Positions 41,822 through 64,000 of a DNA stretch of 64,000 nucleotides are shown piece after piece (positions within the stretch are counted from its first letter, which is position 1; each line of letters starts with the position of its first letter). The DNA lies in assembly GCA_965219955.1 (NCBI GenBank), contig OZ244799.1, positions 1,792,001 to 1,856,000 of the forward strand, given 5' to 3'. The notes below the pieces were generated by a model. That model was given only the letters and a program-made list of their open reading frames with translations. It ran no database searches and was not told where the DNA came from. The stretch is from a bacterium (GTDB lineage Bacteria > UBA8248). The translations under genes were made by a program, and so were the position numbers.

Positions 41822-41882
41822 AATCTCGGCTCTACAAAGCTTGCCCGAAAGTTACTAGAATGCGACTCGAAGAGAGAACGCG

Positions 41883-43088: not shown

Positions 43089-43245
43089 ACTGGTACGGTT
43101 TTTTTGCAGAAATTGTGGTAACAGGTTTGAGGCTAAGGTCCTCGACGACGATGAAAAGCGTGAGGCGAGAAGCAAGAATCAGCCGACCTCCCCCGTCCGA
43201 TGCCCTGAATGCAATCGTGCTGATGTTCGAATTGGTTGGGATTGA
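43081..43245 (+). CDS. 54-aa zinc-ribbon protein
   Basis: CRNC..CPEC; RBS GGGAG; 8-nt overlap with the TIR gene stop. Confidence 0.7.
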   Translation: MTKLVRFFCRNCGNRFEAKVLDDDEKREARSKNQPTSPVRCPECNRADVRIGWD

Positions 43246-43311
43246 TCATCCACAGAGAGCCAAGCACTCTCGCTGTGGCTGAAGTAAGCACCTCGATTGT
43301 TCGTCTTCTTC

Positions 43312-43338
43312 GGCGAAGCGGACGCAATACGCTTCGCC
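43312..43338. terminator. Hairpin between convergent genes
   Basis: ggcgaagcg-N9-cgcttcgcc. Confidence 0.35.
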
Positions 43339-43351
43339 CTCCCGTCCAATG

Positions 43352-44050: not shown

Positions 44051-44234
44051 TTTTGCCTCCACACATAGTTTCCCCTTTATGACCACCAAGAGTCCGAAAT
44101 AAATTCAGTCAGATAAACAAACTTTCCCCTTCCACTACTCCCGACGGCTCCTCTCTTGCCCATCAACCCAAAATGCCGTTGGGTAGAAATAGAAATTGTA
44201 TCCTACCCTTGTGTGTTACCGGGGAGATAAAACG

Positions 44235-44293
44235 ATGGGCCTCAACATCAAGAACGAGGAAACCTGTCGGCTCGCAGGGAACTCGCTCAATTG
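44235..44293 (+). pseudogene. Truncated, frameshifted vapB-like (Rv0623/PSK-type) antitoxin
   Basis: MGLNIKNEETCRLA, then RELAQL after a 1-nt shift; RBS GGGGAG; upstream inverted repeat gggtag..ctaccc at 44181-44208. Confidence 0.7.
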
Positions 44294-44319
44294 CCCTGCC
44301 CTGGTCTCTATGCTACATT
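44291..44319 (+). promoter_or_regulatory. Putative promoter of the TAXI operon
   Basis: TTGCCC-17 nt-TACATT with a TGn extension. Confidence 0.35.
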
Positions 44320-44509
44320 TAACTATCTCTAATATATTTATACTTGTGACCACGCCATCAAACATCTTTCAAAGAGAAGCGTTTTGGGTGTCCCGATGCG
44401 CCGCCGCTACGCCGGCGTATCGGGGTGCGCATCCGGGAAACCCGACAAAGACGCGGAAGGCGCCGGTGCGCTTTCCTTTTCTTAAACCTGGAGACAGGGG
44501 AGGTGAACT

Positions 44510-45547
44510 ATGTGGCGTAATCGAAGCAATGGTAAGCGTCTCGTTCAAAACCGAACCGTGAGAAGTTGTGGATGGCTCCTGGCGTCGGCGATATTCGGCT
44601 TTGTCGCCGTTCTCTCGACCCCCGTATTCGCCATGGACAAGCAGCTTACCTTCATGTCGGGCGGCGCGAAGGGTTCGTGGTACCGCTACCTGACCGCGAT
44701 GAGCGAATGCATGCGGAAAAACAGCGACATCAAGGTCACCGTCGTCCCGACCTCGGGCGGCATGGAAGCGTTCCGCAAGCTCCAGGGAGGCAAGGCCGAC
44801 GTGGGGTTCACCTTCCAGACCGTGGCCTTTCCGGCCTGGCAGGGCAAGGGAAGCTGGAAGGGGAAGAAGCTCCGGGAACTGCGCGCGGTCGGTTTCGGGA
44901 TTTCCTCATCGATATTCCACTTCGTCGTCCTGAAAAGCTCCGGCATCAAGAAACTGGCCGACTTGAGCGGGAAGAAGTTTTCGCCCTGCCCCATCGGCAC
45001 CACCTGCTACGCATCCGTCGGCTCCTTTCTCAAGCACATCGGCCTGTACGAGAAGATCAAGGTCAGCAACCTCTCCCACGGCGAGCAGGTCAGCTATCTG
45101 AAGGACGGCAAGATCGACGGCTACGCCCTTCAGGGCGGCCTTCCGAACCCCTCGGTCACCGAGGCGGCCCTGACCCGGCCCGTCCGGCTGATCAGCATCG
45201 ATCAGGGGGTGAATTTCAGCGGCTTCCTGAAGGAGTTTCCCGGCTTCGAGCCCACGACGATTCCGAAGGGGACCTACAAGGGCGTGGACTACGACGTGTC
45301 CACCATGGGCCTGAGCGGTGTTCTGGTGGCGAACAAGAACACCTCGCCTGATCTGATTTACCAGATGACGAAGACGCTCTGGGGCAAGTCCTGCGTCGGT
45401 TACCTGACCAAGAACAACCGCGGCCTGGCCGGCATGAAGAAAGCCAATCCGACCGAAGGGCTGGTGATTCCGGTTCACGCGGGCGCCGCGCGCTACTGGA
45501 AGGAAAGAGGGATCAAGAACATGGCGCCCGCCGAGGGCTCGATGTAA
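44510..45547 (+). CDS. TAXI-family TRAP solute-binding protein
   Basis: Signal peptide (VFA-M), SGGAKGSW, LKDGKIDG, IPKGTY, HAGAARYWKERG. Confidence 0.9.
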   Translation: MWRNRSNGKRLVQNRTVRSCGWLLASAIFGFVAVLSTPVFAMDKQLTFMSGGAKGSWYRYLTAMSECMRKNSDIKVTVVPTSGGMEAFRKLQGGKADVGFTFQTVAFPAWQGKGSWKGKKLRELRAVGFGISSSIFHFVVLKSSGIKKLADLSGKKFSPCPIGTTCYASVGSFLKHIGLYEKIKVSNLSHGEQVSYLKDGKIDGYALQGGLPNPSVTEAALTRPVRLISIDQGVNFSGFLKEFPGFEPTTIPKGTYKGVDYDVSTMGLSGVLVANKNTSPDLIYQMTKTLWGKSCVGYLTKNNRGLAGMKKANPTEGLVIPVHAGAARYWKERGIKNMAPAEGSM

Positions 45548-49104: not shown

Positions 49105-51156
49105 ATGTATCGGTTGTTTACGTTAGGCGTCGACATCGGTGGAACGTTCACCGACCTCGTGGCGGTCGATCCCGAGCGCGGCGAGGTGCGGACGGGAAAG
49201 ATACCCTCGGTTTCGGATGAGCCCGCAAGGGCCATCCTGGCGTGCCTCCGGGATCTCGGGCTCGAAGGCGAGGAACTGGAGCGGATGATCCATGGAACCA
49301 CCGTCGCCACCAATGCGCTCCTGGAGCGGCGCGGCGCCGTGACGGCGCTGGTGACCACGCGCGGGTTCCGGGACGTGGTCGAAATCGGGAGGTGCCGGCG
49401 GCTGGTCGAGGGCGGCATGTTCAACATCGGGTTCCGCCGTCCGCCGCCCCTGGTTCCCCGAAACTTGCGCGAGGAGGTAGACGAGCGCCTCCGGGCGAAC
49501 GGAAGCGTCGAAGCCTCGCCCCGGCCGGAAGAGTTCCGGAATGTAGTGGAGAATTTGAGACGGGAGGGGGTCGAGGCGGTGGCGGTATGCTTCCTCCACT
49601 CCTACGAGAATCCGGAGCACGAGGAAGCCGTCGGGCGGTGGTTGCGGGACCAGTTGGGGCCTGAGGTCTACATCTCGCTCTCAAGCTCCGTGAACCCCCA
49701 GTACCGCGAATTCGAGCGGTTCTCCACGACTGTGGTGAACGCCTATGTCGGTCCGGCTGTGGGGCGGTATCTCTCGAAACTGAGAGACGAAGATATCGGG
49801 AAGCTGGACAACCGGAGCATTTACATCATGGGTTCGGCCGGCGGCGTGATGGATATCGACACGGCGGAGGACTTTCCGGTGCGGACCATCTTTTCGGGGC
49901 CCGCCGGCGGGGTCACCGCGGGGCGTTTTATCTCCGAGGAACTCGAACTGCCGAATCTCATCACCTGCGACATGGGCGGAACGAGCGCGGACGTCGCCCT
50001 GCTCCTCCGGGACCGGATTCTGTACGCCAGGGATGCCGTCATCTCGGGGGTACCCGTCCGCGCCGCCCAGCTCGAGATCAAAACCGTCGGCGCGGGAGCC
50101 GGGAGCGTCGTGTGGGTCGATGTCGACGGGGCGCTATGCGTGGGACCCAGGAGCGCGGGCTCCTCGCCGGGTCCCGCCTGTTACGGATTCGGGGGAGCGG
50201 AGCCCACCGTCACCGACGCGAACGTCATCCTGAACCGGATCGGGGACGGCGCCCTTCTCGGCGGGAAAATACGGGTGGACGCCTCGCTGGCGCGGGAGGC
50301 GATGGCCCCGGTGCGGGAGCGGCTCGATTTCGGTTCGCTCGAGGAACTGGCCGAAGGGGCGTTGAAAATTCTCGTGGCCCGGACGGTTCGGCTCATCCGC
50401 GAGATCTCGCTCGAACGGGGATTCGACCCGCGCGAATTCGCCTTCGCGGCCTTCGGCGGCGCAGGTCCCATGCACGCCGCGGCCATCGCGGATGAACTCG
50501 ATATGGAAACGGTCGTGGTTCCGTCTCACCCGGGGAATTTTTCCGCCCTGGGGCTCGTGATGGCGAAGATGCGCCGGGATGCGAGCGCCACCTACCTCGA
50601 ACGCTCCTCCACCCTCGACTTGACGGACCTGCGCGGTCGGCTCGCGGATATGGCCAAAGGGGTCGAGGGTCGCCTCCTTGCCGACGGCGTCCGGGAGGAG
50701 AGCATCTCCTTGTCGTGTTTTCTGGAGATGCGCTGTCTCGGGCAGGCTCACGAGATTCCCGTTCCCTTAGGGTCATCTCCGGAGCGGGTGGACCTGCCGT
50801 CCATAGAAGGCGCCTTCCGGAAGATTTATGCCGAGCGCTACGGACGCGACCCGGACCCCGCGACCGAATGGGAGGTGATCTCCATCCAGATCATCGGCGA
50901 GGGAGAAGTCCAGGCGTATCCGGCGAATACCTGGCGGGCAAAGCCCGGGGGCGGCGAAGGCCATAAGGAGATCAGGAAAGTCTGGTTCGAGGGGGAGTGG
51001 CGCGAAACTTGCGTATATGAGCGAAACGAGGTTAGGCCTGGAGCAAGCGTGGAAGGTCCCGCCATCATCGAGGAGAGCGGGGCCACGACGGTGATTCCAC
51101 CGGGGTGGCGCGCCGCGACTCACGCGAGCGGGCATCTGCTGCTGCGGCGACTGTAG
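49105..51156 (+). CDS. Hydantoinase A/oxoprolinase family subunit
   Basis: GVDIGGTFTD, HGTTVATNALL, SGPAGG, DMGGTS, PGPACYG. Confidence 0.92.
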   Translation: MYRLFTLGVDIGGTFTDLVAVDPERGEVRTGKIPSVSDEPARAILACLRDLGLEGEELERMIHGTTVATNALLERRGAVTALVTTRGFRDVVEIGRCRRLVEGGMFNIGFRRPPPLVPRNLREEVDERLRANGSVEASPRPEEFRNVVENLRREGVEAVAVCFLHSYENPEHEEAVGRWLRDQLGPEVYISLSSSVNPQYREFERFSTTVVNAYVGPAVGRYLSKLRDEDIGKLDNRSIYIMGSAGGVMDIDTAEDFPVRTIFSGPAGGVTAGRFISEELELPNLITCDMGGTSADVALLLRDRILYARDAVISGVPVRAAQLEIKTVGAGAGSVVWVDVDGALCVGPRSAGSSPGPACYGFGGAEPTVTDANVILNRIGDGALLGGKIRVDASLAREAMAPVRERLDFGSLEELAEGALKILVARTVRLIREISLERGFDPREFAFAAFGGAGPMHAAAIADELDMETVVVPSHPGNFSALGLVMAKMRRDASATYLERSSTLDLTDLRGRLADMAKGVEGRLLADGVREESISLSCFLEMRCLGQAHEIPVPLGSSPERVDLPSIEGAFRKIYAERYGRDPDPATEWEVISIQIIGEGEVQAYPANTWRAKPGGGEGHKEIRKVWFEGEWRETCVYERNEVRPGASVEGPAIIEESGATTVIPPGWRAATHASGHLLLRRL

Positions 51157-51189
51157 GATGAACGAAAGCGGGATTCGCTCCTCCCTTGA

Positions 51190-51493
51190 GGGGGTTGTTG
51201 AAAAAGCCATGATTTCGTGATTCCACGTATAGAGCTGACCATAAAGGGATGAAACTTTATTTCTCCCTTGCAGAACGCCAATCAACTACTCCCCCCTTGA
51301 GGGGGAGTCGATGAAGCCGAGCGTTTTATGCGAAGGCTGAATCGGTGGGGGGTAAAATGCGTTTTATCGCCACTCCGAATTATACCCCCCACCGAATCGC
51401 TTTCGGGCTTACGCCCTCAGCTCTTCGACTCCCCCTCAAGGGGGGAGTGAAATCTAGCGCGCTCCTTCTGTGGGCTTTTTTAACAGCCCCTCA
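51190..51493. mobile_element. TIR pair enclosing a 162-bp element
   Basis: ggggttgttgaaaaagcc..ggcttttttaacagcccc; inner element at 51288-51449. Confidence 0.8.
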
Positions 51494-51574
51494 TGGAAGG
51501 ATTCCGAACATTTTCGAGGCCTGCCGGAAACTCTATTTGGAATTACGGCCTGCCATGAATGAAGAGGTGGAGAG

Positions 51575-52864
51575 ATGACTTCAAGAAAGGGATCTGATTT
51601 CCTCGAAAGGGCCCGCGCTTCCCTCCCGGGCGGCTGGCTCGGGGACCTGACGCTTCCCGATGAGATGATGCTGATCGCCTCTCGCGGCGAAGGAAGCCGC
51701 CTGTATGACGTGGATGGGCGCGGTTACCTCGATTTCACGATGGGCGGGGGGTCCCTGATTCTGGGACACGCGCATCCGGCCATCCTCGAGGCGGTGCGAA
51801 AGCAGATGGAACTCGGTTCGACTTACTATACGCTGAGTGACCGCTCCATCGAGTTGGCCGAGGAGCTTGTGAAGGCGATTCCCTGCGCGGAACTGGTGCG
51901 TTTCGCCTCAACGGGCGGGGAGGCCACGTTCTACGCGCTGCGGCTGGCGCGCGCCTTCACCGGCAAGGAGAAAATCCTGAAATTCGAAGGGAGCTACATC
52001 GGCCACAGCGACTACGGAATGATGAGCGTCTCCCCGCCGCGCCCGAACCTGTATCCGTCTCATCACCCCGATTCTGCCGGGATTCCCGCAGCGGTTCAGG
52101 AGCTGGTGATCACGGCGCCCTTCAACAACGCCGATATCGCCTGCGGGCTGGTGGAAGAGCACGCCGGGGAGCTTGCCGCCGTCATCGTCGAGCCCGTTCA
52201 GCGCTCCATTCCCCCGGCACCGGGTTTTCTGGAGCAGCTTCGACAGGTGACGACCGAGCGCGGGGTGCTGCTCGTATATGATGAGGTGGTGACCGGGTTC
52301 CGGCTGGCCTACGGAGGGGCGCAGGAGTATTTCGGCGTCGTTCCCGATCTGGCGGCTTACGGCAAAGCCGTCGCGTGCGGATTCCCCTTGTCGGCGGTCG
52401 CGGGACGAGCGGACGTGATGGAGCTGGCGGACCCCGCCCGAAAGGGGGAGCCTGGGTACGTCTACATCAGCGGCACGCTCTCGGGTAACCCGGTGTGCGC
52501 CGCGGCGGCGCTCGCCACCCTGGCAGAATTGTCCAGGCCCGGCGTCTACGACGGCTTACGCGAGATGGGGGAGCGATACCGAAGAGAACTTGCGGCGTTG
52601 TTCGACGAATACGGGGTTCCGGCCCGGGTGCAAGGGCTCGGGCCCTTCTTCCAGGTATTCTTCACGCCGAATCCCGTCACGGACTACCGGAGCCAGACGC
52701 AGGCCGACAGGAATCGTTTCGAATCGTTCGTCCGAAAAATGTTCGCGCAGGGGATTTTCATGAGCCGCAGGGCGAAGAACTATCTTTCCACGGCCCACGG
52801 CGAACCGGACCTGGGCGAGTTCCTGGAAGCGGCGCGAGCCGTATGCGCCGGAGGCCTCGACTGA
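51575..52864 (+). CDS. Class III aminotransferase (glutamate-1-semialdehyde aminomutase-like)
   Basis: YDVDGRGYLD, STGGEAT, YDEVVTGFR, PDLAAYGKA, SGTLSGNP. Confidence 0.9.
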   Translation: MTSRKGSDFLERARASLPGGWLGDLTLPDEMMLIASRGEGSRLYDVDGRGYLDFTMGGGSLILGHAHPAILEAVRKQMELGSTYYTLSDRSIELAEELVKAIPCAELVRFASTGGEATFYALRLARAFTGKEKILKFEGSYIGHSDYGMMSVSPPRPNLYPSHHPDSAGIPAAVQELVITAPFNNADIACGLVEEHAGELAAVIVEPVQRSIPPAPGFLEQLRQVTTERGVLLVYDEVVTGFRLAYGGAQEYFGVVPDLAAYGKAVACGFPLSAVAGRADVMELADPARKGEPGYVYISGTLSGNPVCAAAALATLAELSRPGVYDGLREMGERYRRELAALFDEYGVPARVQGLGPFFQVFFTPNPVTDYRSQTQADRNRFESFVRKMFAQGIFMSRRAKNYLSTAHGEPDLGEFLEAARAVCAGGLD

Positions 52865-52866
52865 TC

Positions 52867-54927
52867 ATGAGCGAGAGCCGGACGATTCCAGAGAGCGCCT
52901 CGGCCGACGCCGTCACGGTCTCGGTCATTCAGGAACTCCTCATCTCCGTGGTCCGCGAGATGCGGGTCACTTTTTCGAGAAGCGCCTTCTCGTCGATCAT
53001 CAACGAAGGACACGATTTTTCCTGCGCCCTTCTCTCGCCGGAAGGAGATCTGGTCGCCCAGTCGGAAGATCATCCCGGCCACATCTTCCCGATCTCCTAC
53101 GCCGCCAGAGCGGTTTTCGAGCGCTACGCGGGCGACGTTCATCCGGGCGACGTTTTTCTCCTGAACGACCCCTATATCTGCGGAACCCACATGAACGACA
53201 TGGCGATGTTCTGCCCCCGGTTTTTTGAGGGCCGCGCGCTCGCCTTTCCGGCGCTCCGCGCGCATTGGGGGGACGTCGGCGGCTCGGTGGCCGGCAGTCT
53301 CTCCGGCGACGCCTCCCACATCTTCATGGAGGGGATGATCGTCCCGCCCATCCGGCTCTACTCCCGGGGCGAGTTGAACCAGGAATGCCTGGAGGTCGTT
53401 CTCCGGAACATGCGGGGCCGCGAAGACAGGCACGGCGACCTGATGGCCATGCTCGGCACCTGCCGGCTGGCCCAGCGGCGCCTGGACGAAATCGAGGAGC
53501 GGTACGGACGCGAAACGCTCCAGGCGGTGAACGACAACCTCATAGCCAGGGCGGAGAAACGGATGCGGGCGGCCATCAGCGCGCTGCCGGACGGAACGTT
53601 CCACTACGAGAACTATATCGACAACAGCGGGACGGGCGCCGAGCCGCTCAGAATTTCACTTCGCCTCCAGATTCAGGAAGACCGAATCCACTGTGATTTC
53701 AGCGGGACTTCCGGGCAGGTGAAAGGGCCTACGAATGCGGGCCCCGCCACGGTGGCCACGTCTTGCTTCATGGTGCTCAAATCGCTCCTGGATCCCGCCC
53801 TGAGCGTGAATGCGGGCTGTTTCCGCCCGCTTACGATGGATGCCCCGGAAGGGTCCATTCTCAATGCGGAATTTCCCGCTCCGTTCGGCGGCGCTTCCGA
53901 CGTGCGGCGCACGATTGAATCGTGCGTCCTGGGCGCGGCGGTCCAGGCGATGCCCGACCTTGCGGCGGGCGACACGAAGGGGGCGGCCAACCATTGCTAC
54001 ATCGCTGGCAGCCAACCCGGCTCCGGCGAAGCCTTCCTCTACTATGAATATCCGGCGGGGGGCACGGGCGCTCTCGCGGGAAGCGACGGGGACCACGCCA
54101 TCCGGACCTACACCGAAGGGGATTTTAACGCCGTCCAGCCGGTGGAGAGCCTGGAGGCCACGCTTCCGGTCCTCGTGGAGGAGAGCGGCCTTCGGGTCGG
54201 CTCCTGCGGCCACGGGGAGCGGCGCGGCGGTCTGGGAATGGAGCGGAGGGTCCGCCTGGAGACAGGCGGCGCGGGTCTCACCGTTTTGACGGACCGCGTG
54301 ATCATTCCTCCCTACGGGGTGGACGGCGGGACCTCGGGTGGAGGAAACCGGTTCACGGTGCAGCGGGATGGTTCGGAGGTCGAGCCTTCCGGCGTCCCAG
54401 GAAAAGCCACGGCGTTCCCGCTTCTCGAAGGCGACGCCGTCGTGCTGCGCTCCGCGGGTGGAGGAGGCTGGGGAGACCCCCTGCTCCGCACGCCCGAGGC
54501 GGTGCTGGCGGACCTCCGGCTGGGATACATCACGGTGGAGGATGCGCGGGATATCTATGGCGTGGTCTTGAAGGACGGAGCGCTCGATGCGGCCGCGACC
54601 TCCGCTGCGCGGGAGCAGCTTAGAAATGGAAGGACATATCTCACCATACTCATTGACGAGGAGGACGCCTGCAGCGGCAGCCGGCGGCTTTGCCCGATGT
54701 CTCCCGAGACGGCTGGCGAAGGCGGATTCTCGGAGGGAATGCTCGTGGAGTACGTTCCGGCGCGGGGCGCGCCGCTCAGAGCCTGGGTGAAGATAACGCC
54801 GGGGCCGGCCAAGGGGGAAACTCCCCTCGGACCCGTCGCGGCGAGCATCCTGAAACTGCGGGATAAAGAGCGAATATGGGTCCGGCGGATCCTGACGCCC
54901 TATTCGCACCCCCCGTTGGCCTCGTGA
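52867..54927 (+). CDS. Hydantoinase B/oxoprolinase family subunit with a C-terminal extension
   Basis: SAFSSIINE, NDPYICGTHMND, RAHWGDVGG, AGGGGWGDP. Confidence 0.92.
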   Translation: MSESRTIPESASADAVTVSVIQELLISVVREMRVTFSRSAFSSIINEGHDFSCALLSPEGDLVAQSEDHPGHIFPISYAARAVFERYAGDVHPGDVFLLNDPYICGTHMNDMAMFCPRFFEGRALAFPALRAHWGDVGGSVAGSLSGDASHIFMEGMIVPPIRLYSRGELNQECLEVVLRNMRGREDRHGDLMAMLGTCRLAQRRLDEIEERYGRETLQAVNDNLIARAEKRMRAAISALPDGTFHYENYIDNSGTGAEPLRISLRLQIQEDRIHCDFSGTSGQVKGPTNAGPATVATSCFMVLKSLLDPALSVNAGCFRPLTMDAPEGSILNAEFPAPFGGASDVRRTIESCVLGAAVQAMPDLAAGDTKGAANHCYIAGSQPGSGEAFLYYEYPAGGTGALAGSDGDHAIRTYTEGDFNAVQPVESLEATLPVLVEESGLRVGSCGHGERRGGLGMERRVRLETGGAGLTVLTDRVIIPPYGVDGGTSGGGNRFTVQRDGSEVEPSGVPGKATAFPLLEGDAVVLRSAGGGGWGDPLLRTPEAVLADLRLGYITVEDARDIYGVVLKDGALDAAATSAAREQLRNGRTYLTILIDEEDACSGSRRLCPMSPETAGEGGFSEGMLVEYVPARGAPLRAWVKITPGPAKGETPLGPVAASILKLRDKERIWVRRILTPYSHPPLAS

Positions 54928-54960
54928 GCGGGCTGACAACCTTACCTCGTCGCCGGGTCA

Positions 54961-55320
54961 GAGCGAGGAGGGGCTGTTGAAAAAGTCCTGTCCAACCTTC
55001 GAGATTGTTCGCCGTAGGGACAGGCCTCCGTGCCTGTCCTGACGAAGGACAACCACGAAGAGCCGGACAGGCACGGAGGCCTGTCCCTACAAAACCATCA
55101 CGTCTGCGCCGCATGAACCTCCTTGCCACCGATCCCGAAACCGGCTTTCTCAACAATCCCTTCTCGCTCGAAATTGACCACCGCCGGAATGACGCTCAAA
55201 GCTGTATTCGCCCGTAGGGGCGGTTCGCGAACCGCCCCTACAATCCCATCATGTCAAACTCTCACTCACCAGTCGGCTCCATGTACCGAATCAGGAAATC
55301 GGGACTTTCTCAACACCCCC
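54961..55320. repeat. Repeat mosaic (reversed relative of the 15500 element plus a REP)
   Basis: TIR pair at 54970-55160 with doublet 55014-55090; REP at 55214-55241; extra TIR end near 55318. Confidence 0.8.
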
Positions 55321-55420
55321 CCGGATCAGGGTTCCATGACACCCTGAACACAATGAATTACAATTCCTCCACACATCGAACCCAGCCCCAAGAGACTCGA
55401 TTTTTCGGGAGGAACCCAGA

Positions 55421-56809
55421 ATGCCTCAGAAAGCCGATTATCTTCTAAGCGGGGGAACCGTCATCACGGTGGATGAAGAGCGCCGCGTTATCCGGGACGG
55501 CGCCGTAGCCATTCGAGGAGACCGGATCGCCGCCGTCGGGAAGGCGGAGGAGTTGAGCCGGGAATTCACCGCCGGGCGCACGATTGACGCCAAGGGGAAG
55601 CTCATCATGCCCGGTTTCGTGAATTCCCACATGCATTTCTACCACACCATGCACCGGGGGCTGGCGCCGGAAAATCTCGGAGGTATGCTGTGGTCCGACT
55701 ACGTTCACAGATACATCGCCACGGTCCTCACGCCCGAGGATGAGATATACGGCGCGCTGACGATTCTCCTGGAAACCTTGAAGGCGGGCACCACCACCTT
55801 TCTCGAGGCGGGCTCCTACAACCCGGCGGCGGTGATCGAGGGAATCTCGCGCATCGGGATGCGCGGCCTGATGGGCAGGCGGTCCTTCGACGAGGAGCTT
55901 CTGGGCCACGGCATGCTCCTGGAGGATACCGAGACGTGCCTGAAGGAAAATCTCGCCTTCCTGGAGAAGTACAAGGACGGCTACAACGGCGGGTTGATCA
56001 AGGCGTGCGTGGACGTCGTCGGGCTCGGCCGCTGCTCGGACAAGCTGTATATCGATTCGAAAAAGATGGCGGATGATTACGGGACCACCCTGAACCTGCA
56101 CCTTGCGGCCATGTTCGAGGAAGTGACGGCCACGCGCATGCGCTATGGCCACCGTCCCGTCGAGCATATGTATCATCTGGACGTGCTCGGGCCGAATACG
56201 GTTCTCGTTCACATGGTTCACGTGAGCGAGCGGGAAATCGACATGCTGGCCGAAAAAGAGGCGCGGGTGATTCACTGTCCCTCGACGGCGCTCAAGATTT
56301 CCTACGGCAACGCGGCGTTCGGAAGATTCCCGGAGATGTTGGACAAGGGCGTCACCGTCGGAATCGGAAGCGACGCTTCGGACTGCTCGAACTATGCCGA
56401 CATGATTCGCGTCATGTACCTGGCCGGCGTGCTGCCCAAGGATTACCGCTACGACCCCGACGCCGGTTCCGCGGAGACGGCCATCGAGATGGCCACCATC
56501 AACGGAGCGCGCGCCATCGGGATGGACCATGAAATCGGTTCGCTCGAGACCGGCAAAAAGGCGGACGTGATCATCATCACCATGAAGCGGCCCGAGTGGT
56601 ACCCGCTCTACAGCGAGGTGCAGAACCTCGTGTATTCCGCCTCGGGCGATTCGGTGGAGACGGTGTTCATCGACGGGAAGGTCATCATGGAAGACCGCCG
56701 GGTGTTGACGGTGAATGAGGAGGAAATCCTGGAGAAGTGCCAGGAATGCGCGGCGGGAATCCTCAAGAGGAGCGGCGTGGAAGTACCGGGCAAATGGCCT
56801 ATCCTGTAA
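55421..56809 (+). CDS. Amidohydrolase (MTA/SAH deaminase/AtzB-like)
   Basis: PGFVNSHMH, VHMVH, HCPS, GIGSD, ATINGARA, GSLETGKKAD. Confidence 0.9.
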   Translation: MPQKADYLLSGGTVITVDEERRVIRDGAVAIRGDRIAAVGKAEELSREFTAGRTIDAKGKLIMPGFVNSHMHFYHTMHRGLAPENLGGMLWSDYVHRYIATVLTPEDEIYGALTILLETLKAGTTTFLEAGSYNPAAVIEGISRIGMRGLMGRRSFDEELLGHGMLLEDTETCLKENLAFLEKYKDGYNGGLIKACVDVVGLGRCSDKLYIDSKKMADDYGTTLNLHLAAMFEEVTATRMRYGHRPVEHMYHLDVLGPNTVLVHMVHVSEREIDMLAEKEARVIHCPSTALKISYGNAAFGRFPEMLDKGVTVGIGSDASDCSNYADMIRVMYLAGVLPKDYRYDPDAGSAETAIEMATINGARAIGMDHEIGSLETGKKADVIIITMKRPEWYPLYSEVQNLVYSASGDSVETVFIDGKVIMEDRRVLTVNEEEILEKCQECAAGILKRSGVEVPGKWPIL

Positions 56810-56810
56810 A

Positions 56811-56830
56811 AAAACCCGCTCGGTCCGGGG
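56811..56830. repeat. Left copy of a 20-bp inverted repeat
   Basis: aaaacccgctcggtccgggg; 19/20 match to the reverse complement of 63954-63973. Confidence 0.5.
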
Positions 56831-56984
56831 AGAAGCGTCAGGAGCGGATCACGAAACCGGAGGGCGAATGAACAAGATTTACGGCGTGAGATGAAGCGCA
56901 TTTCCACACGAATCGAATTTCCGAAAAATTCGATTAATAATTGTCATGAACCCGGTGTCGGCGCGATAGTATGATTGACTCCGT

Positions 56985-57012
56985 TTGTCTACGATAACTG
57001 GTTGTTTATAAT
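56985..57012 (+). promoter_or_regulatory. Putative integrase promoter
   Basis: TTGTCT-16 nt-TATAAT in an AT-rich spacer. Confidence 0.45.
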
Positions 57013-57130
57013 ACCATATTTCTTTTATTTCCTACCCGATGCCCCTTGCGCTTCCGCCGCACATATGCTTGGATAGCTCCCAGTTTGATGCCGCGCGTAT
57101 GCGTTTTGATTACAGACTCAGGGAGGCGGG

Positions 57131-58315
57131 ATGCCGAAGCGAAGCGATCTGAAACTCACGAAGCGCACCGTCGACGCTCTGGAGGTGGATTCCAAAGACG
57201 CCGTCTTCTGGGACCGGGAGCTGGCAGGCTTCGGGGTGCGCGTCCACGCCACCGGCCGGAAGACCTACGTGGTGCAGTCCCGGGGACCCGGAGGGCCGAA
57301 GCGCGTGACGCTCGGCCGTCACGGGGAGCTGTCTGCTGATGAGGCCAGGAAACAGGCCGCCCTCATTATCGACCGCATCAAGCGGGGCGAGGAGCCGGTG
57401 GCCGAACCGCCCGAGGCGGAGACCACCGTGGCCGGCCTTGCAGAGCGCTTCATGCGCACCCACGTGGAGAAACACCTGAAACCCGCCAGCATTGCCGCGT
57501 ACCGCACCGTGCTCGAGGGGCACATCCTGCCGGCCCTGGGCGGGATGGGGCTGGACGAGGTCGGCGGGGCGGAAGTCACGGCGCTCCATCACGGCCTTCG
57601 CGATACGCCGGTCCTGGCGAACCGGGCGGTCCACCTGCTCTCGCGCATGTTCGTACTTGCCGAGGCGTGGGAGCTGGTCCCGCCCGGGCGGAACCCCTGC
57701 CTCGCCGTGCGCCGCTACAGGACGCAGGCGCGCGAGCGGTTCCTGACGCCCGAGGAATACCGGCGCCTGGGCCGTGCGCTCGGGCAAGCCGAGGCGGAGG
57801 GTGGTGTATGGCCGCCCGCCGTCGCGGCCATCCGGCTGCTCGCACTTACCGGATGCCGCAGGGGCGAGATACTGAATCTCGGGTGGGACGACGTGGACCG
57901 CACGTCGGGGGACCTCAGACTTCGGGACGCCAAGGCGGGCCCCTGGATGGTCCCCCTGACGAAGCCCGTGCTCAGGGTGCTCGACGCCATCCCCCGCTCC
58001 GGGGAGAACCCATGGGTGATCGCGGGACAAAGACCCGGAAAACCCCTGACGGGCCTGCACCACTACTGGCGGCCCGTCCGGGAGCGGGCGGGGCTTCATG
58101 ACGTACGCATCCACGACCTCAGACACTCCTACGCATCGAGGGCGCTGGCTCTGGGCGAGAGCCTCTACACGATCGGGAAACTCCTCGGGCACACGAGCGT
58201 GGCGACGAGCGCGCGCTACGCGCACCTGATGCGAGACGCCGAGAGGGAGGCGGCGGTACGGGTGGGCGGGAGCATCGGCGCCCACGTCGCGAACGGGAGG
58301 GTTGAGCACGGATGA
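57131..58315 (+). CDS. Tyrosine integrase 1 (arm-binding domain plus catalytic domain)
   Basis: WDRELAGFGVRV; catalytic TGCRRGE, DAKAG, HDLRH, LGH and ARYAH intact. Confidence 0.93.
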   Translation: MPKRSDLKLTKRTVDALEVDSKDAVFWDRELAGFGVRVHATGRKTYVVQSRGPGGPKRVTLGRHGELSADEARKQAALIIDRIKRGEEPVAEPPEAETTVAGLAERFMRTHVEKHLKPASIAAYRTVLEGHILPALGGMGLDEVGGAEVTALHHGLRDTPVLANRAVHLLSRMFVLAEAWELVPPGRNPCLAVRRYRTQARERFLTPEEYRRLGRALGQAEAEGGVWPPAVAAIRLLALTGCRRGEILNLGWDDVDRTSGDLRLRDAKAGPWMVPLTKPVLRVLDAIPRSGENPWVIAGQRPGKPLTGLHHYWRPVRERAGLHDVRIHDLRHSYASRALALGESLYTIGKLLGHTSVATSARYAHLMRDAEREAAVRVGGSIGAHVANGRVEHG

Positions 58316-59481
58316 AGCAGCCCGTCATGAAAACGCTATCAAACCGCGCGGTCGGGAAGATCGCGGTGAAGAAGGACACCGTCTTCTGGGACGGGGAGCT
58401 CACGGGCTTCGGGGTCAGGGTCTATCCCACCGGGAGCAAGGTCTACGTCGCCCAGGCGCGGGGTCCCGAGGGTCCCAAACGCGTGGCCGTGGGCCGCCAC
58501 GGGGTGATCAACGCCGATGAGGCGAGAAAGCGCGCCGCCCATGTCATCGCGCGTATCAAGGCGGGCGAGGAGGCAATCCCCAAGCCCATGAAACCCGTGG
58601 GAGGCCCCACGGTGGCCGAGCTGTGCGCGCGCTACATGGAGGAATACGTCTCGGTGCGGTGCAAGCCGGGCACCGCCGCGCTCTACCGCTCGGTGATCGA
58701 CCGCCACGTCCTGCCCGCCCTGGGCAGGGCGCCGCTGGCCGCGCTCTCGCGCGCGCAGGTGGCGGAATTCCACGAGAGCCTTTATGAGACGCCCGCTGTG
58801 GCGAACATGGCGCTCCGCGTCCTCTCCGCGATGTACGAACTCGCACGGAAGTGGGAACTGGTGCCAGACGGATTATCAAACCCCTGCAAGGCCCTTGTGA
58901 AATATCCCGAGCGGAAGCGCGAGCGGTTCCTGACGGATTCGGAGTTCACCCGCCTGGGAGAGGCGCTCGATGAGGCGGAGGCCCGGGGCGGTGTTTCCGT
59001 GTCTGCTGTGGCCGCTATCCGCCTCCTGGCGCTGACGGGGTGCCGCAGGAGCGAGATACTCAAACTACGCCGGGAGGACGTGGCGCTCGAAGCTGCCGAG
59101 CTCAGGCTGCCCGATTCCAAGACGGGCGCGCGGGCGGTCCCGCTCCCGCCGCAGGCGGTCGAGCTTCTAGTGAATCTCCTGAGCGCCCACGACGGCCCCT
59201 GGGTCATCCCGGGCAGGAAGCCGGGGACGCGCTTGAGGAACATCGACGAGGCTTGGCGAATGATAAGGGAGCGCGCGAGCCTGGAAGGCGTAAGGCTGCA
59301 CGACCTGCGCCACTCCTGGGCCTCGCGGGCGCTTGCGCTCGGCGAGGGGCTGCCCGTCATCGGGAAGCTCCTGGGCCACAGCAGGATGGAGACGACGGCG
59401 CGCTACGCGCACCTCGCGCGCGACTCGGCCCAGGAGGCGGCCGGGCGGGTCGCGGAGAGCATCGCCGAAGACATGCTGTAG
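58312..59481 (+). CDS. Tyrosine integrase 2 (paralog)
   Basis: WDGELTGFGVRV; TGCRRSE, DSKTG, HDLRH, LGH, ARYAH; ATGA overlap with integrase 1. Confidence 0.93.
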   Translation: MKQPVMKTLSNRAVGKIAVKKDTVFWDGELTGFGVRVYPTGSKVYVAQARGPEGPKRVAVGRHGVINADEARKRAAHVIARIKAGEEAIPKPMKPVGGPTVAELCARYMEEYVSVRCKPGTAALYRSVIDRHVLPALGRAPLAALSRAQVAEFHESLYETPAVANMALRVLSAMYELARKWELVPDGLSNPCKALVKYPERKRERFLTDSEFTRLGEALDEAEARGGVSVSAVAAIRLLALTGCRRSEILKLRREDVALEAAELRLPDSKTGARAVPLPPQAVELLVNLLSAHDGPWVIPGRKPGTRLRNIDEAWRMIRERASLEGVRLHDLRHSWASRALALGEGLPVIGKLLGHSRMETTARYAHLARDSAQEAAGRVAESIAEDML

Positions 59482-59854
59482 GGTCGCAGCAGGCGTGCCC
59501 CCCGTGCGCATCCCTTCATCGCTGCTCCTTCCCGGGAGCAGGAAAAACCACAAGAATACACGATAAAGGCATGCAGCTGGTTCCATGGAATATGCACAGG
59601 ATATACGACTCCTGTATAATCGGAACAGACGTTCACCGGGAGGTGAGCGGGTTGCCCGCCTCCCCCGGGGGAAACCGCGGGAGAGTGAAAGGGAGGACCC
59701 GGAAAATGAGGCAGCGCGCGAGGGGAGCCCGCCCAGGCTTGCAGCCGGAGGCCGCATCCCGGACAGTCCGTATTCCGTCATCTCTCACCTGTTTCTACCG
59801 CCCCCGAAGTTATTCTTCTCCACGCAACGAGGTTCCGGTCCCGGAGAGGGCGGC

Positions 59855-60436
59855 ATGAAGATCAAGAAGAATTTTTTGAGCCGTATCGCGCGTCGCAAGG
59901 GTGCCGCACAGGCTGAATCGGAAGAGGGGCACGGGATTCCGCCTCCGGCGGCCATCGAGCCGTTCGTTCCGGATGCGACGGGAATCCCGAAGGACAAGGA
60001 GCTTGGTTCGCACCGGGAACTGGAACTGGTCGCTTCCGGGGAGCCTGCGCCAGCCGGTTCGGCGGACGGCGCGGACGCGGTTGACGGCGGTGATGCTCCC
60101 GCCCCGGAGGCATTGTCCGAACTACCTCGTGGAGCAGCGCCGTATGAGGAATATGGCCTCGAACTCGAGTTGCTGAGCGGCACGGAATCAGAAGCGTCGC
60201 CCGAAGAACCGAATCTGTCTCCGGATGGATCGTCTCTCGGAGAAGAAGCCGCCGCCTCAGCGGCAGCCGGTAGCGTCGTGCAGGCGTCTGCGCCCGAGCC
60301 GGTTCACGAAGAAGACGAGAGCGTCTCGCTCGTGTCCGAAAGCGCCGCGGATGCGGTTGCGCCCGAGCCGGAGGTCATACGGGAGAGCGAACCGGAAGCC
60401 GCCGATGACGCCGTTGCCGGGGATGGGAGAGCCTGA
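59855..60436 (+). CDS. Acidic low-complexity protein with a basic N-terminus (probable 5' part of a split gene)
   Basis: RBS GGAGAGG; MKIKKNFLSRIARRK then E/A/P-rich; repeat SAADAVAPEPEVIRESEP shared with the next ORF. Confidence 0.6.
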   Translation: MKIKKNFLSRIARRKGAAQAESEEGHGIPPPAAIEPFVPDATGIPKDKELGSHRELELVASGEPAPAGSADGADAVDGGDAPAPEALSELPRGAAPYEEYGLELELLSGTESEASPEEPNLSPDGSSLGEEAAASAAAGSVVQASAPEPVHEEDESVSLVSESAADAVAPEPEVIRESEPEAADDAVAGDGRA

Positions 60437-60447
60437 GGGCGCCGGTT

Positions 60448-60858
60448 TTGCAAGATTCGCCGGATGAAGACGAGCCGCCGTTCGCAGACGAAGAAGCCGG
60501 CCCGGAGACAGCCGGAAGCGCCGCGGAAGCTGCTGCGCCTGAACCGGAACTCTCCAGGGAGAGTGAGCCTGCGGGATATGTCACGGGGGAGGTCGGTGAG
60601 CCCCTCGCGGCTCCGGTGACGCAGGACTCGCCGGATGAGTCCTTCAAACCCGCTCCCGCGGAAAACGGTATTTTCCCCCTCGTGCGGGACGCTCGCGGCG
60701 CGTGGCGGCCCGGCAGGGGATTCAGCGGGGGTGAATTGCGCGAAGCGGGCCTGAGCCCCGCCGATTCCCTGCGCCTGCATATCCGCTTCGACAAGCGCCG
60801 CCCCAACGCGCACTCGGTGAACGTCGCAGCCCTCGAACAGGCGAAGAACGGCGTTTGA
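60448..60858 (+). CDS. Acidic linker plus ribosomal protein eL13 (L13e)-like domain
   Basis: PLVR..GRGFSGGELREAGLS..LHIRFDKRR..NVAAL (60670-60858) follows the eL13 pattern GRGFS-x2-EL-x2-AG..I-x-D-x-RR..NV-x2-L. Confidence 0.8.
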   Translation: MQDSPDEDEPPFADEEAGPETAGSAAEAAAPEPELSRESEPAGYVTGEVGEPLAAPVTQDSPDESFKPAPAENGIFPLVRDARGAWRPGRGFSGGELREAGLSPADSLRLHIRFDKRRPNAHSVNVAALEQAKNGV

Positions 60859-60890
60859 GGGCCATGAACCGGCAGTGAAAGGGAGCAACG

Positions 60891-60995
60891 ATGAGCGAAT
60901 CCGTATTGGAATTCAAGAATTGTCACGGCTCCACCAGGTACGACGAGGAGAACAGGACCCTGCACGGCAAGGTTCTCCCTGCGCAGGGGATTTGA
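60891..60995 (+). pseudogene. HicB-like antitoxin N-terminal remnant
   Basis: MSESVLEFKNCHGSTRYDEENRTLHGKVL; RBS GGGAG; stops after 34 aa. Confidence 0.6.
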
Positions 60996-61012
60996 TTGCA
61001 TGCGAAGCCGAA

Positions 61013-61084
61013 GAGGACGTGGCGCTCGAAGAAGCGGAACTGAGGCTCGCGAGCTCCAAGACGGGCGCGCGTGTCGTCTCGCTC
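61013..61084 (+). pseudogene. Internal integrase remnant
   Basis: EDVALEEAELRLASSKTGARVVSL, 19/24 aa identical to 59074-59145. Confidence 0.8.
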
Positions 61085-61397
61085 ACGGAGCCGAACGAGA
61101 GCCGTCTGCCGATCACCGGTCCCCCGGGGTGTGTCCGATTCTCCGGGTAAGCGGCGGTCCTGGGCATGGGCTTTCATGGTTCAACTCTACGATTTGCAGT
61201 TTGAATTCGAGTGTAATCAGGAGCTCTGTCAGCCGCAGGAGTCAAGGTTTGCAGCATCGCACGTTCCTGGTGGTGCGGATGCGTTCCTGTGGACATACCG
61301 GGCCGTTGCGACAAAGCGCAGAATGCAGATAACATCGACAATCATCCACTCTGGCCTTGGCCGGTTCGTTTGCGTTTATCGGGAAAGGGGAATTTCG

Positions 61398-63872
61398 ATG
61401 AGGATCGCTTTGGCGGCCGTCGCCGCTTATGCAGTGCTGACGGTGATGATATCCCATGCCGGGCCTCTCGCGCCGGCCCCGCAGGTTATCGCCGAATACG
61501 ACCGCAAGTTCATCGAGCGGTCGGGCGCCCAGACGCTCGAGGAACTGTTGGACACCGGCATCATCCGCTACTTTTTCACCGGGGGACGAGATCTGCTCGT
61601 ACTGGTGAACGGCAGACCCTACGCCACCACCGGCCATAATCTGGACTCCCTGCCGCTCTCGGCCGTGGAGCGCATCGAGGTTCTGAGAGGAGAGAGTCTG
61701 AGCACGCTGGGCGGCCACGCCGCCGTAAACGGCGCGTTCAATATCGTGCTCAGAAAGGACCTGAACGGCTTCGAGGTGCGTACGGTTACGCGGATGCCGA
61801 GCAAGGACGGTGGCGACGGCTGGCAGGGCAGCCTCTTCTGGGGCGGCGCCGTCGGCAAGGGAGGACGCATGACCATCGGCGTGGACATATTGGATCGTCA
61901 GGAAATCCTCGGAAAGGACCGGGAACACAGCCGCTCCGAGTGGGTCAAGGGTGGCAGCTTCAGCCAGGCCAGGAATATCAGCGTCGGCGGCAACACCGTC
62001 TATGTCACCCAGAAAGACGACCAGGGAGAATTTGTCGGCTTGAGGTCGGTACCACTGGGGGACTGCGACCCGTCGCTAGGCTATGCCGGCCCGCTCAGCA
62101 ATCCGCCCGGTATCCGCACGGGCGACGAGGGCTGTGGTTACGCCTATGGAAACATCTGGTGGGACACACCCAGCTATGAGCAGAAGAGCGCCGTCCTGAA
62201 CCTGGAGTATCCGCTCGGAGAGGACGCCAAATTCCATCTGGACGCGAACATCAGTCAGGGCCACGGGGCGTTCCGCTACGCGCCGTCGATCGACGTGTTT
62301 TCCTTTACGCCGAACGAGACATTGCTGGATGAGCTCAAGAGAGCAGCAGGCTCAGACTTCCAGTTGGGAGAAAACGACGAATTCTCCGTGGGGCACCGCT
62401 TCATCGGCCACGGCAACCGTGACTGGGTGACGGACACCGAGGAATACGACGTTTCCGCAAGCGTTGAGGGTCGTCTGGCTGAAGGTCTCGGCTATGATGT
62501 GCGCGTCAGTGCCTACCGGCTGGACCATTCCGTGTCCGGCGACACCTTCGTGCATGCGGGCAGGATCAGGGAAGAGATCGAGAGCGGGGGTTACAACATC
62601 GCGAACCCGTTGGACCCGCGTAATTCCGCGGCGATCGAGAACAGCAGCTTGCAAGAGGAAAAAGATTCCAGTTCGGACTATCTCGGCGCCCGGCTGGCGC
62701 TGGAGGGCATTGGCTTCTCCATCGGCGGGCGCCCGGCGGCATGGACCGCAGGGGTCGAACTGGGGAGTGTGGACGCGCACCGCCTCCTGGTCTTCCGGGA
62801 CAGGGACGGACGAACCCATAAAGTGACCGAGGTGCTCGGTTCCGGCGGCACCAGCTATGCCGGCAAGCGCGACATCGCCGCGGCCTTTTGGGAGATGTCC
62901 CTGCCGCTGGCCGACAATCTGGAAATCAGGGTCGGGGGACGCGGCGATGAATACGACGATATCGGCGGATTGGAATCGTGGCGTTTTGGAGCCGAATACC
63001 GGCTGACCGGCATCGTCACGCTGCGCGGCTCTTGGAGCGCGGGCGACGCGTCGCCCTCCATGAGGCACCTCTACAGCGACGCGGCGCAGACCCACCCTTA
63101 TGTCGTTTGCGACCCCGGGAGCGGACCGCCGCCCCGCACATGCGATAGTCCGAACTACCGGCAGGTGACGCGCGAGACGAGCGGCAACCCGGGTCTCGAC
63201 CCCTCGGGCTCCGAGATGCTCTCTTTGGGCGCCGAGGCCCGCAAAGGGCCGTTCTATCTCGTCGCGGACTGGTACCGGCTCACAACATCCGACCAGGCGG
63301 GGCAGAACAGCGCCACCTGGGCCATGTTGAACCTGCAAGAATGCCAGGGCGGTAACCGAAACGACTGCATCGAGCGCATCGGCGGCGACATCACCATTCA
63401 CCACAGCTTTGCGAACATTGTCGATACCGATATTTCGGGCGTGAATTTCCGGTACGGCGCGCGGACGAGAACGGCGTGGGGCGTTATCGGGATGCGCGGG
63501 TTCTGGCGGCGCGTCATCAGCTCCGAACAGCAAATCGCGGACGAAAAGCAGCGGTATCCCCTCCCCAAGGATGCCGTCCGCGTCGTCGTCTCGGCCGGGC
63601 GCGGCAACCTCACCGCTTTCTGGTCCACGAACTACCGCTCCGAAATCGAGAATCAGTCGGACGAAGGGAGGTTCAAGTCCTGGACCGGCCACGATGTAAC
63701 ACTCGACTGGAAGCGGCCGCTGGGGTGGGAAGACGTGCGGGTGACCGCAGGCGTGTACAACGTCACCGATTCCAAGCTCTCGACGAATACAGCCAACCCC
63801 TCCCTTGTGGACGGACCCACCGCGGCCGGTTGGGGCCGCACCTTCTTCCTCACCCTCAACATGCGGTTCTGA
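61398..63872 (+). CDS. TonB-dependent receptor-like outer-membrane protein
   Basis: Signal peptide, LVLVNGR..LPLSAVERIEVLR, GNPGLDP, GVYNVTD, C-terminal FFLTLNMRF. Confidence 0.88.
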   Translation: MRIALAAVAAYAVLTVMISHAGPLAPAPQVIAEYDRKFIERSGAQTLEELLDTGIIRYFFTGGRDLLVLVNGRPYATTGHNLDSLPLSAVERIEVLRGESLSTLGGHAAVNGAFNIVLRKDLNGFEVRTVTRMPSKDGGDGWQGSLFWGGAVGKGGRMTIGVDILDRQEILGKDREHSRSEWVKGGSFSQARNISVGGNTVYVTQKDDQGEFVGLRSVPLGDCDPSLGYAGPLSNPPGIRTGDEGCGYAYGNIWWDTPSYEQKSAVLNLEYPLGEDAKFHLDANISQGHGAFRYAPSIDVFSFTPNETLLDELKRAAGSDFQLGENDEFSVGHRFIGHGNRDWVTDTEEYDVSASVEGRLAEGLGYDVRVSAYRLDHSVSGDTFVHAGRIREEIESGGYNIANPLDPRNSAAIENSSLQEEKDSSSDYLGARLALEGIGFSIGGRPAAWTAGVELGSVDAHRLLVFRDRDGRTHKVTEVLGSGGTSYAGKRDIAAAFWEMSLPLADNLEIRVGGRGDEYDDIGGLESWRFGAEYRLTGIVTLRGSWSAGDASPSMRHLYSDAAQTHPYVVCDPGSGPPPRTCDSPNYRQVTRETSGNPGLDPSGSEMLSLGAEARKGPFYLVADWYRLTTSDQAGQNSATWAMLNLQECQGGNRNDCIERIGGDITIHHSFANIVDTDISGVNFRYGARTRTAWGVIGMRGFWRRVISSEQQIADEKQRYPLPKDAVRVVVSAGRGNLTAFWSTNYRSEIENQSDEGRFKSWTGHDVTLDWKRPLGWEDVRVTAGVYNVTDSKLSTNTANPSLVDGPTAAGWGRTFFLTLNMRF

Positions 63873-63953
63873 GGGTCCGTTCGAGAATCTTCAGGGACAG
63901 ACGGTGGAGCGGAATCCGGTCGATGATGAATGCGGTTTTCCTGTAACTCCAAC

Positions 63954-63973
63954 CCCCGGTCCGAGCGGGTTTT
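63954..63973. repeat. Right copy of the 20-bp inverted repeat
   Basis: ccccggtccgagcgggtttt. Confidence 0.5.
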
Positions 63974-64000
63974 CTCCATCGCCGGCGTCCGCCGCTCCAT

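Follow-up and report, generated by a model that had tools for sequence, protein, structure and literature searches.

A tandem pair of arm-type tyrosine integrases as the probable left-end module of mobilizable islands with a dispersed repeat as target

Two adjacent integrase genes, called here intA and intB, lie near the end of a 64,000-nucleotide stretch of DNA from a sponge-associated bacterium (the window; GTDB lineage UBA8248, assembly GCA_965219955.1, contig OZ244799.1, positions 1,792,001 to 1,856,000). The genome that contains this window, G000, is a single contig (C1) of 4.28 Mb; the other labels in G, L and P used below denote relatives, loci and sibling elements, respectively. We propose, with a probability of about 0.8, that IntA and IntB constitute the left-end integration and excision module of a family of mobilizable (and in some members conjugative) islands that use a dispersed repeat as their target. 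Comparison between genomes shows that the subfamily to which the window belongs crosses over at a 7-bp overlap ending in CGAT, located inside a dispersed intergenic repeat.

The integrase pair and its conservation

The intA and intB genes are joined by an ATGA overlap (58,312-58,315) and their products are 54% identical (Table 1). In both proteins Arm-DNA-bind_3 and Phage_integrase score above the Pfam cut-offs and the catalytic set is intact (R243, K268, H328, R331, H354 and Y363 in IntA; R245, K270, H330, R333, H356 and Y365 in IntB), a layout with an N-terminal DUF4102/Arm-DNA-bind_3 domain and catalytic RKHRHY residues that is that of IntSXT-type integrases. Coordinates, Pfam domains and the six residues all agree with an initial annotation, made from the letters alone, which had described two full-length, catalytically intact, ATGA-coupled paralogs with arm domains. 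A PDB sequence search yielded weak matches only, to Xer and integron relatives, while PADLOC gave no match for IntA or for the eL13-like piece described below and Rfam gave none in 50,000-64,000.

The pair was searched for in 41 genomes, 23 of them from the genus of the window. G000 carries six close pairs, one of which has a frameshifted A gene, and one distant pair; among the close pairs the identities are 62-72% from A to A, 65-72% from B to B and about 53% from A to B. Close integrase matches were found in 17 of the 23 genus genomes and in two genomes of another family. A B gene stands directly behind A in 77 of the 79 loci fetched with IntA, the two misses being contig edges, and A is followed by B for 45 of the 47 A genes counted by hand in five whole genomes searched with both profiles. 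These counts bear out the idea that the two genes are a distinct, conserved two-recombinase module: the pair is kept, with one shared pair of attachment (att) sites, and does not come apart into two islands with att sites of their own. It occurs in metagenome-assembled genomes of three bacterial lineages, labelled as Nitrospinota, alphaproteobacterial and gammaproteobacterial, and the sequencing runs containing the DNA of the window are labelled as sponge, marine and coral metagenomes.

The phylogeny rests on quick trees, in which the A proteins form one clade (SH-aLRT 99) and A and B together form one clade (100) among single prophage-type integrases; the nearest single relatives are prophage integrases with 44-47% identity. 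The A-A and B-B identities are correlated across 71 loci (r 0.93, with 0 of 999 permutations as high). Once the P7 pair and L173's second pair, four distant rows in all, had been excluded, none of the six catalytic residues varied among the distinct proteins (81 A and 69 B). The ratio of nonsynonymous to synonymous substitution rates relative to the genes of the window was 0.14-0.29 in 15 comparisons of A and 0.20-0.34 in 14 comparisons of B; at this level of codon comparison, both genes are under purifying selection. Sequence comparison further shows that a single ancient duplication of an arm-binding integrase of phage type gave rise to the module.

In cultured bacteria, more remote tandem pairs (about 35% identity) are found on the megaplasmid of Shewanella oneidensis MR-1 and on an Aurantiacibacter plasmid and form a separate group in the tree. 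The distant pair of G000 (L001:15120-17691, G000:C1:1869119-1871690), which is nested in the island and 33-40% identical to IntA and IntB, falls into this group. A Paracoccus plasmid match was considered as a further pair and rejected, a single integrase being present within the 9 kb examined. Viral relatives are mostly single: a second integrase was seen in 3 of the 39 loci with room on both sides, and in one of these three it was in tandem. On one alphaproteobacterial contig, three near-identical pairs (L133, L135 and L136) with common upstream DNA lie about 30 kb apart, possibly as a tandem array that inserts into its own end.

Island ends and the repeat target

Homology among the close copies begins at about 56,915 and ends at the stop codon of intB; there is therefore no conserved third gene. 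Upstream of intA, a promoter scan detected a promoter-like site at 56,985-57,012 (10 of 12 consensus matches), and a conserved leader motif at 57,084-57,113, made of two TTTGAT units 21 bases apart and found upstream of 6/6 close pairs in G000, is a putative arm-binding site. Throughout the subfamilies, the leader motif is found about 150 bases downstream of the crossover. A related arm is present at the far (right) end of the island, and three right-arm copies occur in the island of the window.

The relative G003 carries the amidohydrolase gene followed by an intact short repeat and then by 5.7 kb matching G000 from 1,951,091 on, i.e. an empty site with synteny over 1.45 kb to the left and 5.7 kb to the right. 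It follows from this empty repeat and its syntenic flanks that the island begins at 56,935 and reaches a junction at a distance of 102,164 bases. As delimited by this alignment, the island is about 102 kb long, extends past the end of the window and has intA-intB as its left-end module. Four other relatives (G016, G014, G008 and G006) were tried as empty alleles and discarded, as they possess the amidohydrolase gene with unrelated DNA downstream. Neither the window nor the two junctions contain a tRNA gene, and the tRNA/tmRNA insertion of P4-like elements is not seen here. The initial annotation had reported no tRNA target; this is correct for tRNA genes in the window, but a target site does exist, at 56,928-56,934, upstream of the start of the interval that it described.

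The left ends of 21/21 close copies adjoin the left half of the repeat at CGAT, and 29 right ends found by pattern each enter its right half, the conserved arm lying upstream in 28 of them. For twelve islands both limits could be set, giving lengths of 20-102 kb. A position in G000 could be assigned to 43 of 54 flanks. Thirty of the 43 (one being the filled site of the window itself) point to a repeat at the orthologous place, for which the chance expectation is about 0.02 each.

The repeat consists of AT-rich direct GATAAA units around a TTCACGGGG core. A profile search of G000 returned 75 hits at 71 loci, in both orientations and about 60 kb apart, with only one of the 71 loci inside crudely called genes, compared to 75% coding. 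A 27-base pattern of the repeat matched 17 of the 41 genomes, exactly the 17 genus genomes with close pairs (kin that are not independent), and gave 0 matches with the reversed control and 0 matches in viral contigs. Folding of the repeat at the tested junction was no better than that of shuffled sequences (z -1.4), and it is not a hairpin of the repetitive extragenic palindrome (REP) type. Among the genomes searched, only a single clade within the genus has the GATAAA repeat. Inverted motifs of the CCCGCATTT type often flank the repeat, about 80 bases to the left and 167 to the right of the core start, with both sides present in 17 of the 75 hits. It should also be mentioned that a stretch of low GC content (44-55% compared to about 63%) occupies positions 40,001-45,000 of the window, 12 kb upstream of the island.

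A survey of the targets of the subfamilies gave scorable junctions for 79 of 86 loci. Repeat site 1 accounts for 22 of these junctions and the second TTCGAT of the GATAAA repeat, in opposite orientation, for 17. Six junctions (seven by eye, with L165) adjoin a REP-like palindrome that has 283 matches in G000, three adjoin a second palindrome (133 matches) and two have a third (402 matches) nearby. Three more (L140, L142 and L150), of one subfamily, lie at a fixed point inside an IS256 transposase gene, upstream of intA, and the remaining 26 match none of the listed targets. The four target patterns that were checked occur in about 0.1% of random windows, a figure to be read with the facts that they were defined after inspection and that many loci are close kin. 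A loose regular expression for the right arm matched noise and was not used.

Several observations do not fit easily with the proposed module and its target. The B proteins are not one clade in either tree and the placement of the L133 group is unsettled; in the five whole genomes, three B-type genes and one split gene stand alone; not all pairs have the ATGA coupling; and L129 (in G008) is a chimera that combines, at repeat site 1, an A of the subfamily of the window with a B of the P3/P4 subfamily. At the level of the islands, 13 of the 43 mappable flanks are not at a repeat, and the left and right overlaps are unequal in 5 of the 12 delimited islands, although all keep CGAT. The unequal overlaps could result from reshuffling between sibling islands or from a mismatch tolerance like that of IntDOT, each being sufficient. 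The two flanks of several islands, including G002d with identical overlaps, map to separate places in G000, and island ends are therefore often reshuffled. The repeat patterns were defined after the junctions had been seen, and the sample is biased to one genus. Lastly, neither an excision circle nor an empty-site junction was found among the matches listed when 55,400-64,000 was compared with the assembled contigs of four runs (at most three samples; runs X1 and X4 may be the source), and the search for circular junctions recommended in the initial annotation was thereby negative at this scope. Other signals in the runs were accounted for as follows: a joint of 59,483 to 63,911 equals the locus of sibling P4 and is no deletion variant; the X5 contig ending at 56,938 is explained by a graph branch; and run X7, which covers the island part and leaves out the amidohydrolase flank, gives no evidence of a different site.

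Cargo, backbone and relation to known elements

Table 1. Features at the left end of the island (window coordinates)
Feature	Position	Strand	Remarks
Amidohydrolase gene	55,421-56,809	+	Host-side left flank, outside the island; Pfam Amidohydro_1; common to the G003 empty allele
Left part of GATAAA repeat (host half of attL)	56,893-56,927	+	Left half of the 71-locus repeat; aligned to the G003 empty site
7-bp crossover overlap ATTCGAT	56,928-56,934	+	Recurs at the right junction, G000:C1:1951092-1951098
Element-side attL arm and leader	56,935-57,130	+	
intA	57,131-58,315	+	Arm-type (DUF4102) tyrosine integrase, 394 aa
intB	58,312-59,481	+	Arm-type tyrosine integrase paralogous to intA, 389 aa
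Variable cargo slot, intB to relaxase 3' end	59,484-63,910		18 bases in sibling P4
Frameshifted extra copy, acidic protein with C-terminal eL13-like domain	59,855-60,858	+	Frames 59,855-60,436 and 60,448-60,858
Scraps: 34-codon ORF and intB-like fragment (about 61,012-61,100)	60,891-61,101	+	DNA match to intB copies 81-93%
TonB-dependent receptor	61,398-63,872	+	Pfam
MOBF (TrwC-type) relaxase 3' remnant	63,911-64,000	-	Runs on to window-equivalent 64,342
ORF, open reading frame.

The cargo behind the pair varies between copies, as tabulation of the slot contents confirmed: other copies hold an HU gene, a TRAP transporter or nothing. In the window, only the second piece of the eL13-like gene scores (Pfam L13e at 24.8 bits for a cut-off of 24.9; NCBIfam PRK12277 at E 1e-10, below cut-off), and its frame break is covered without gaps by contigs of X5 and X7. 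The "eL13 protein" of the initial annotation is thus sound as to the similarity of this piece, but the gene is broken into two frames and is additional to an intact one of about 440 aa elsewhere in G000. In this genome eL13-like copies are located at G000:C1:2098595-2099900 and 1943369-1944715, and the C-terminal piece is present in 18 of the 22 other genus genomes, mostly once. About a dozen of these 18 are syntenic with the copy near tRNA-Asn, the extra copies being in islands; the domain is of the archaeal type, here at the end of a bacterial acidic protein. Further downstream, the integrase scrap and the TonB receptor announced earlier were both recovered, whereas the "hicB" scrap was not, since neither the 34-codon ORF (at E 0.05) nor the intB-like fragment has a Pfam match. 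A decayed sibling element whose integrases have been lost carries the block 61,078-63,910 again, at 92%.

Contrary to the initial statement that no conjugation gene is visible, the 3' remnant of a MOBF relaxase gene begins at the last bases of the window. Its coding match extends over 63,944-64,342 (window-equivalent), corresponds to residues 806-938 and is 80% identical to the intact relaxase of a sibling; the element is therefore of conjugative ancestry. Among 20 close copies examined, a full-length MOBF match is present in seven, split in two more and cut by the contig end in another two. The sibling backbone behind the variable slot comprises the MOBF relaxase, ssb, DUF4326, a YspA-SLOG protein and a NikA-like gene, and sibling P4 additionally carries F-type tra genes (TraD, G, H, F, U, W and C) for a full transfer system, as integrative and conjugative elements (ICEs) do. 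No type IV secretion or coupling protein was detected in 62 ORFs of the island of the window, a scan that left aside three long border-spanning ORFs and some ABC subunits. Beyond the remnant, this island contains two ssb-DUF4326-YspA blocks, the nested distant integrase pair and the three right arms, together with restriction-methylase, AbiE, transporter and RND pump genes and a second eL13-like copy. With its relaxase reduced to the last 133 codons, its duplicated blocks and its nested pair, it is therefore a decayed composite island. Comparison of the copies indicates that the slot variation fits exchange between sibling islands rather than cassette capture.

Other cargo was noted in passing. 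Just past the window, L001:8214-9590 encodes a PAP2-fold protein with a twin-arginine-like N-terminus, which may be vanadium-haloperoxidase-like, and a cytochrome P450 is also among the cargo. The island of G020 at the orthologous site (L084:14407-19888 and L085:76-2604) bears cas3, cas1 and genes between them, which by our reading are type I-E-like, and its relaxase is split by a three-recombinase element. HU/IHF-family genes often occupy the slot behind intB (L033, L042, L049 and L095), and their products could be DNA-bending helpers for recombination.

With these features the element would work like an integrative and mobilizable element (IME), being an att-delimited island with its own recombinase; it lacks what defines RIT, SE, GInt and Tn554 elements, the XerC/XerD system and integrons. 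It has two genes with arm domains where RIT elements have three simple recombinases and terminal inverted repeats; it has no conserved third gene where SE and GInt elements have four genes, including a non-catalytic recombinase-fold protein and a small helical protein; and its proteins of 394 and 389 aa have no third partner and do not correspond to the TnpA, large TnpB and TnpC of Tn554. The NCBIfam models of XerC and XerD give 46-67 bits for cut-offs of 330-335, the integron-integrase model is far below its cut-off, and the slot holds no cassette repeats. XerC and XerD are nevertheless similar in being two paralogous, catalytically intact tyrosine recombinases that are kept together and act on an asymmetric site, dif. 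The Xer proteins are chromosomal housekeeping gene products without arm domains acting at one dif site, unlike IntA and IntB, which have such domains.

The comparison with published systems draws on parts of the cited articles. The IntSXT subgroup (DUF4102) comprises enzymes encoded by P4-like phages, islands and ICEs (Smyshlyaev et al. 2021, PMC8138268), and the domain order (Arm-DNA-bind_3, core-binding, catalytic) and the island end with arm sites and a short overlap are shared with it; in the part of that work consulted, its members adjoin tRNA or essential genes, whereas here two integrases and a dispersed repeat are found, and the text of that work does not contain the words "pairs", "tandem" and "two YRs". 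As in ICEs and IMEs (Cury et al. 2017, PMC5587801), the islands have a MOBF backbone, F-type tra genes in one sibling, att-delimited ends and stacked ends. About 70% of ICEs are described as having one tyrosine recombinase, the multi-integrase cases being composites or serving another function (PMC5587801); here, by contrast, the two genes evolve together as a fixed unit, and no excisionase was detected. The SE, GInt, RIT and Tn554 elements resemble the islands in that their left end holds multiple tyrosine recombinases, with genes that are coupled, cargo following them and a short far end, but they need three or four genes (Tfp/Srap, GinC/GinD, RitC, TnpC), and SEs and GInts are reported to be non-mobilizable (Idola et al. 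2023, PMC10214605; Bardaji et al. 2017, PMC5385486), unlike the relaxase-bearing islands with two genes of equal size, both with arm domains, reported here. Dispersed extragenic repeats also serve as landing sites for insertion sequences: IS1397, IS621 and IS1594 target REPs (Delihas 2011, PMC3184786) and the CGTC REPs are insertion targets (Di Nocera et al. 2013, PMC3733652). Those are small transposase elements, in contrast to integrase islands of 20-100 kb. IntDOT of CTnDOT is likewise an arm-type integrase with a short overlap, whose mismatch tolerance could explain the 5/12 unequal overlaps, but it is a single enzyme of another subgroup (PMC2817482). No description of the integrase pair or of its repeat targets was found in the literature consulted, although the supplementary tables of PMC8138268 and PMC10214605 may list members. 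Nothing relevant to the pair was found in 10.1101/2024.02.09.579496 or 10.64898/2026.01.13.699239.

Roles of the two integrases and significance

According to the mechanism that we envisage, the element would excise as a circle and integrate by recombination between attP and attB into any of the approximately 70 repeat copies. Both enzymes would act in one synapse, each on one side of the asymmetric core in the manner of XerC and XerD, with the arm sites setting the architecture of the synapse. An F-type system like the one in sibling P4 would mediate transfer in trans, and cargo turnover would come from recombination among sibling islands and from stacking at their right end.

Such a heteromer of IntA and IntB, by analogy with XerC/XerD, is the mechanism that we favour, at about even odds. 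Three circumstantial lines support it, namely the asymmetry of the half-sites, the differences in the tail and arm domain and, weakly, a complex prediction. The likeness of host-left to element-left half-sites is 0.54-0.59 and that of any inverted pairing 0.09-0.42; counting the other way, the likeness of the right half-site profiles is only 0.35 even after inversion, and the number of units on the host-right side is variable. Of 14 fixed differences between A and B, five lie in the last 31 residues (binomial p 0.003) and seven in the arm domain (p 0.03); the C-terminal tail of tyrosine recombinases carries subunit contacts. The predicted A-B complex scored 0.38 and the best control 0.00, with runs agreeing in at least 78% of contacts and a partner pLDDT of 80; 116 of 157 solved pairs reach this mark, as do 2 of 215 mismatched ones, but scores of 0.60 or less account for only 18 of the 157 and for both mismatches. 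The prediction covered A-B only, with no homodimer control, and its score may reflect likeness to solved recombinase complexes. A broader proposal is offered tentatively, as one that we hold somewhat improbable: the islands would be a novel class in which an obligate heterotetramer of two co-evolved integrases, each reading half of a non-palindromic site, gives rise to retargeting subfamilies and to a repeat landing network that reshuffles the chromosome.

The pair could also divide its labour by direction, each integrase forming a homotetramer, one integrating and the other excising in place of an excisionase. This is unlikely in our estimation, even though no AlpA gene was found in G000, three HTH_17 matches there include none in the island of the window and one in sibling P4, and no excisionase family appeared among the 62 ORFs scanned. 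The arm domain holds half of the fixed differences, and the left and right arms differ save for a common TTTGATTAC-like unit, both of which would suit such a division. But both enzymes would have to read one asymmetric core, family-specific residues also lie in the C-terminal tails, and small unlabelled backbone ORFs could be directionality factors. We give still less credit to the view that one enzyme acts on the island ends and the other is an accessory or has a different substrate, such as circle dimers or stacked internal right arms. Several internal right-arm copies do occur per island (three in that of the window) and lone B-type genes exist, yet the strict gene order, the co-divergence (r 0.93) and the equal purifying selection on both genes speak against it, and a second site family was not found.

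The GATAAA repeats might themselves be footprints made and spread by the elements and not a pre-existing host feature. This would agree with the exact coincidence of repeat and close pairs in 17 of the 23 genus genomes (which, as kin, are not independent), with the resemblance of the right core of the element to the left half of the repeat, and with the absence of the repeat behind the amidohydrolase gene in four relatives. We nonetheless think it doubtful: the repeats are at orthologous places across species, the cuts of two subfamilies fall at separate points and in opposite orientations, G030 and G032 lack the repeat despite their many pairs, and inverted motifs of its own flank the repeat (on both sides in 17/75 hits). 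In any case this alternative concerns how the repeat originated and would agree with its use as a target today. Less probable than any of these is an integron-like platform in which the pair inserts discrete cassettes behind intB. Slot genes do differ between copies and include host-like genes, but 59,484-63,910 contains no repeat or arm hit and so no cassette site, and the slot blocks are bounded by integrase and relaxase scraps, a sign of recombination between sibling islands. The gene-capture platform suggested in the initial annotation accordingly gives way to a pair located at the end of an IME/ICE-type island with a MOBF backbone, and not integron-like with cassettes of its own.

The recognised groups of tyrosine-recombinase elements (ICE/IME, SE, GInt, RIT and Tn554), as presented in the consulted part of PMC10214605, do not include a two-gene arm-type module. 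If both enzymes are needed, IntA-IntB would be a mobile, arm-regulated counterpart of XerC/XerD with defined short sites. If the heterotetramer proposal were true, freedom from symmetric targets would let subfamilies retarget to whichever host repeat abounds, as exemplified by the GATAAA repeat at two points, the REP-like palindromes and the IS256 gene. Natural subfamilies with different targets offer a series from which the rewriting of integrase specificity could be learnt, with use in large-cargo genome engineering. For the host, the repeats would serve, instead of tRNA genes, as a genome-wide set of landing sites for the island family, and repeat targeting would explain the presence of 5 to 11 islands per genome as well as the shuffling of transporter, defence and CRISPR cargo in uncultured sponge symbionts of several phyla.

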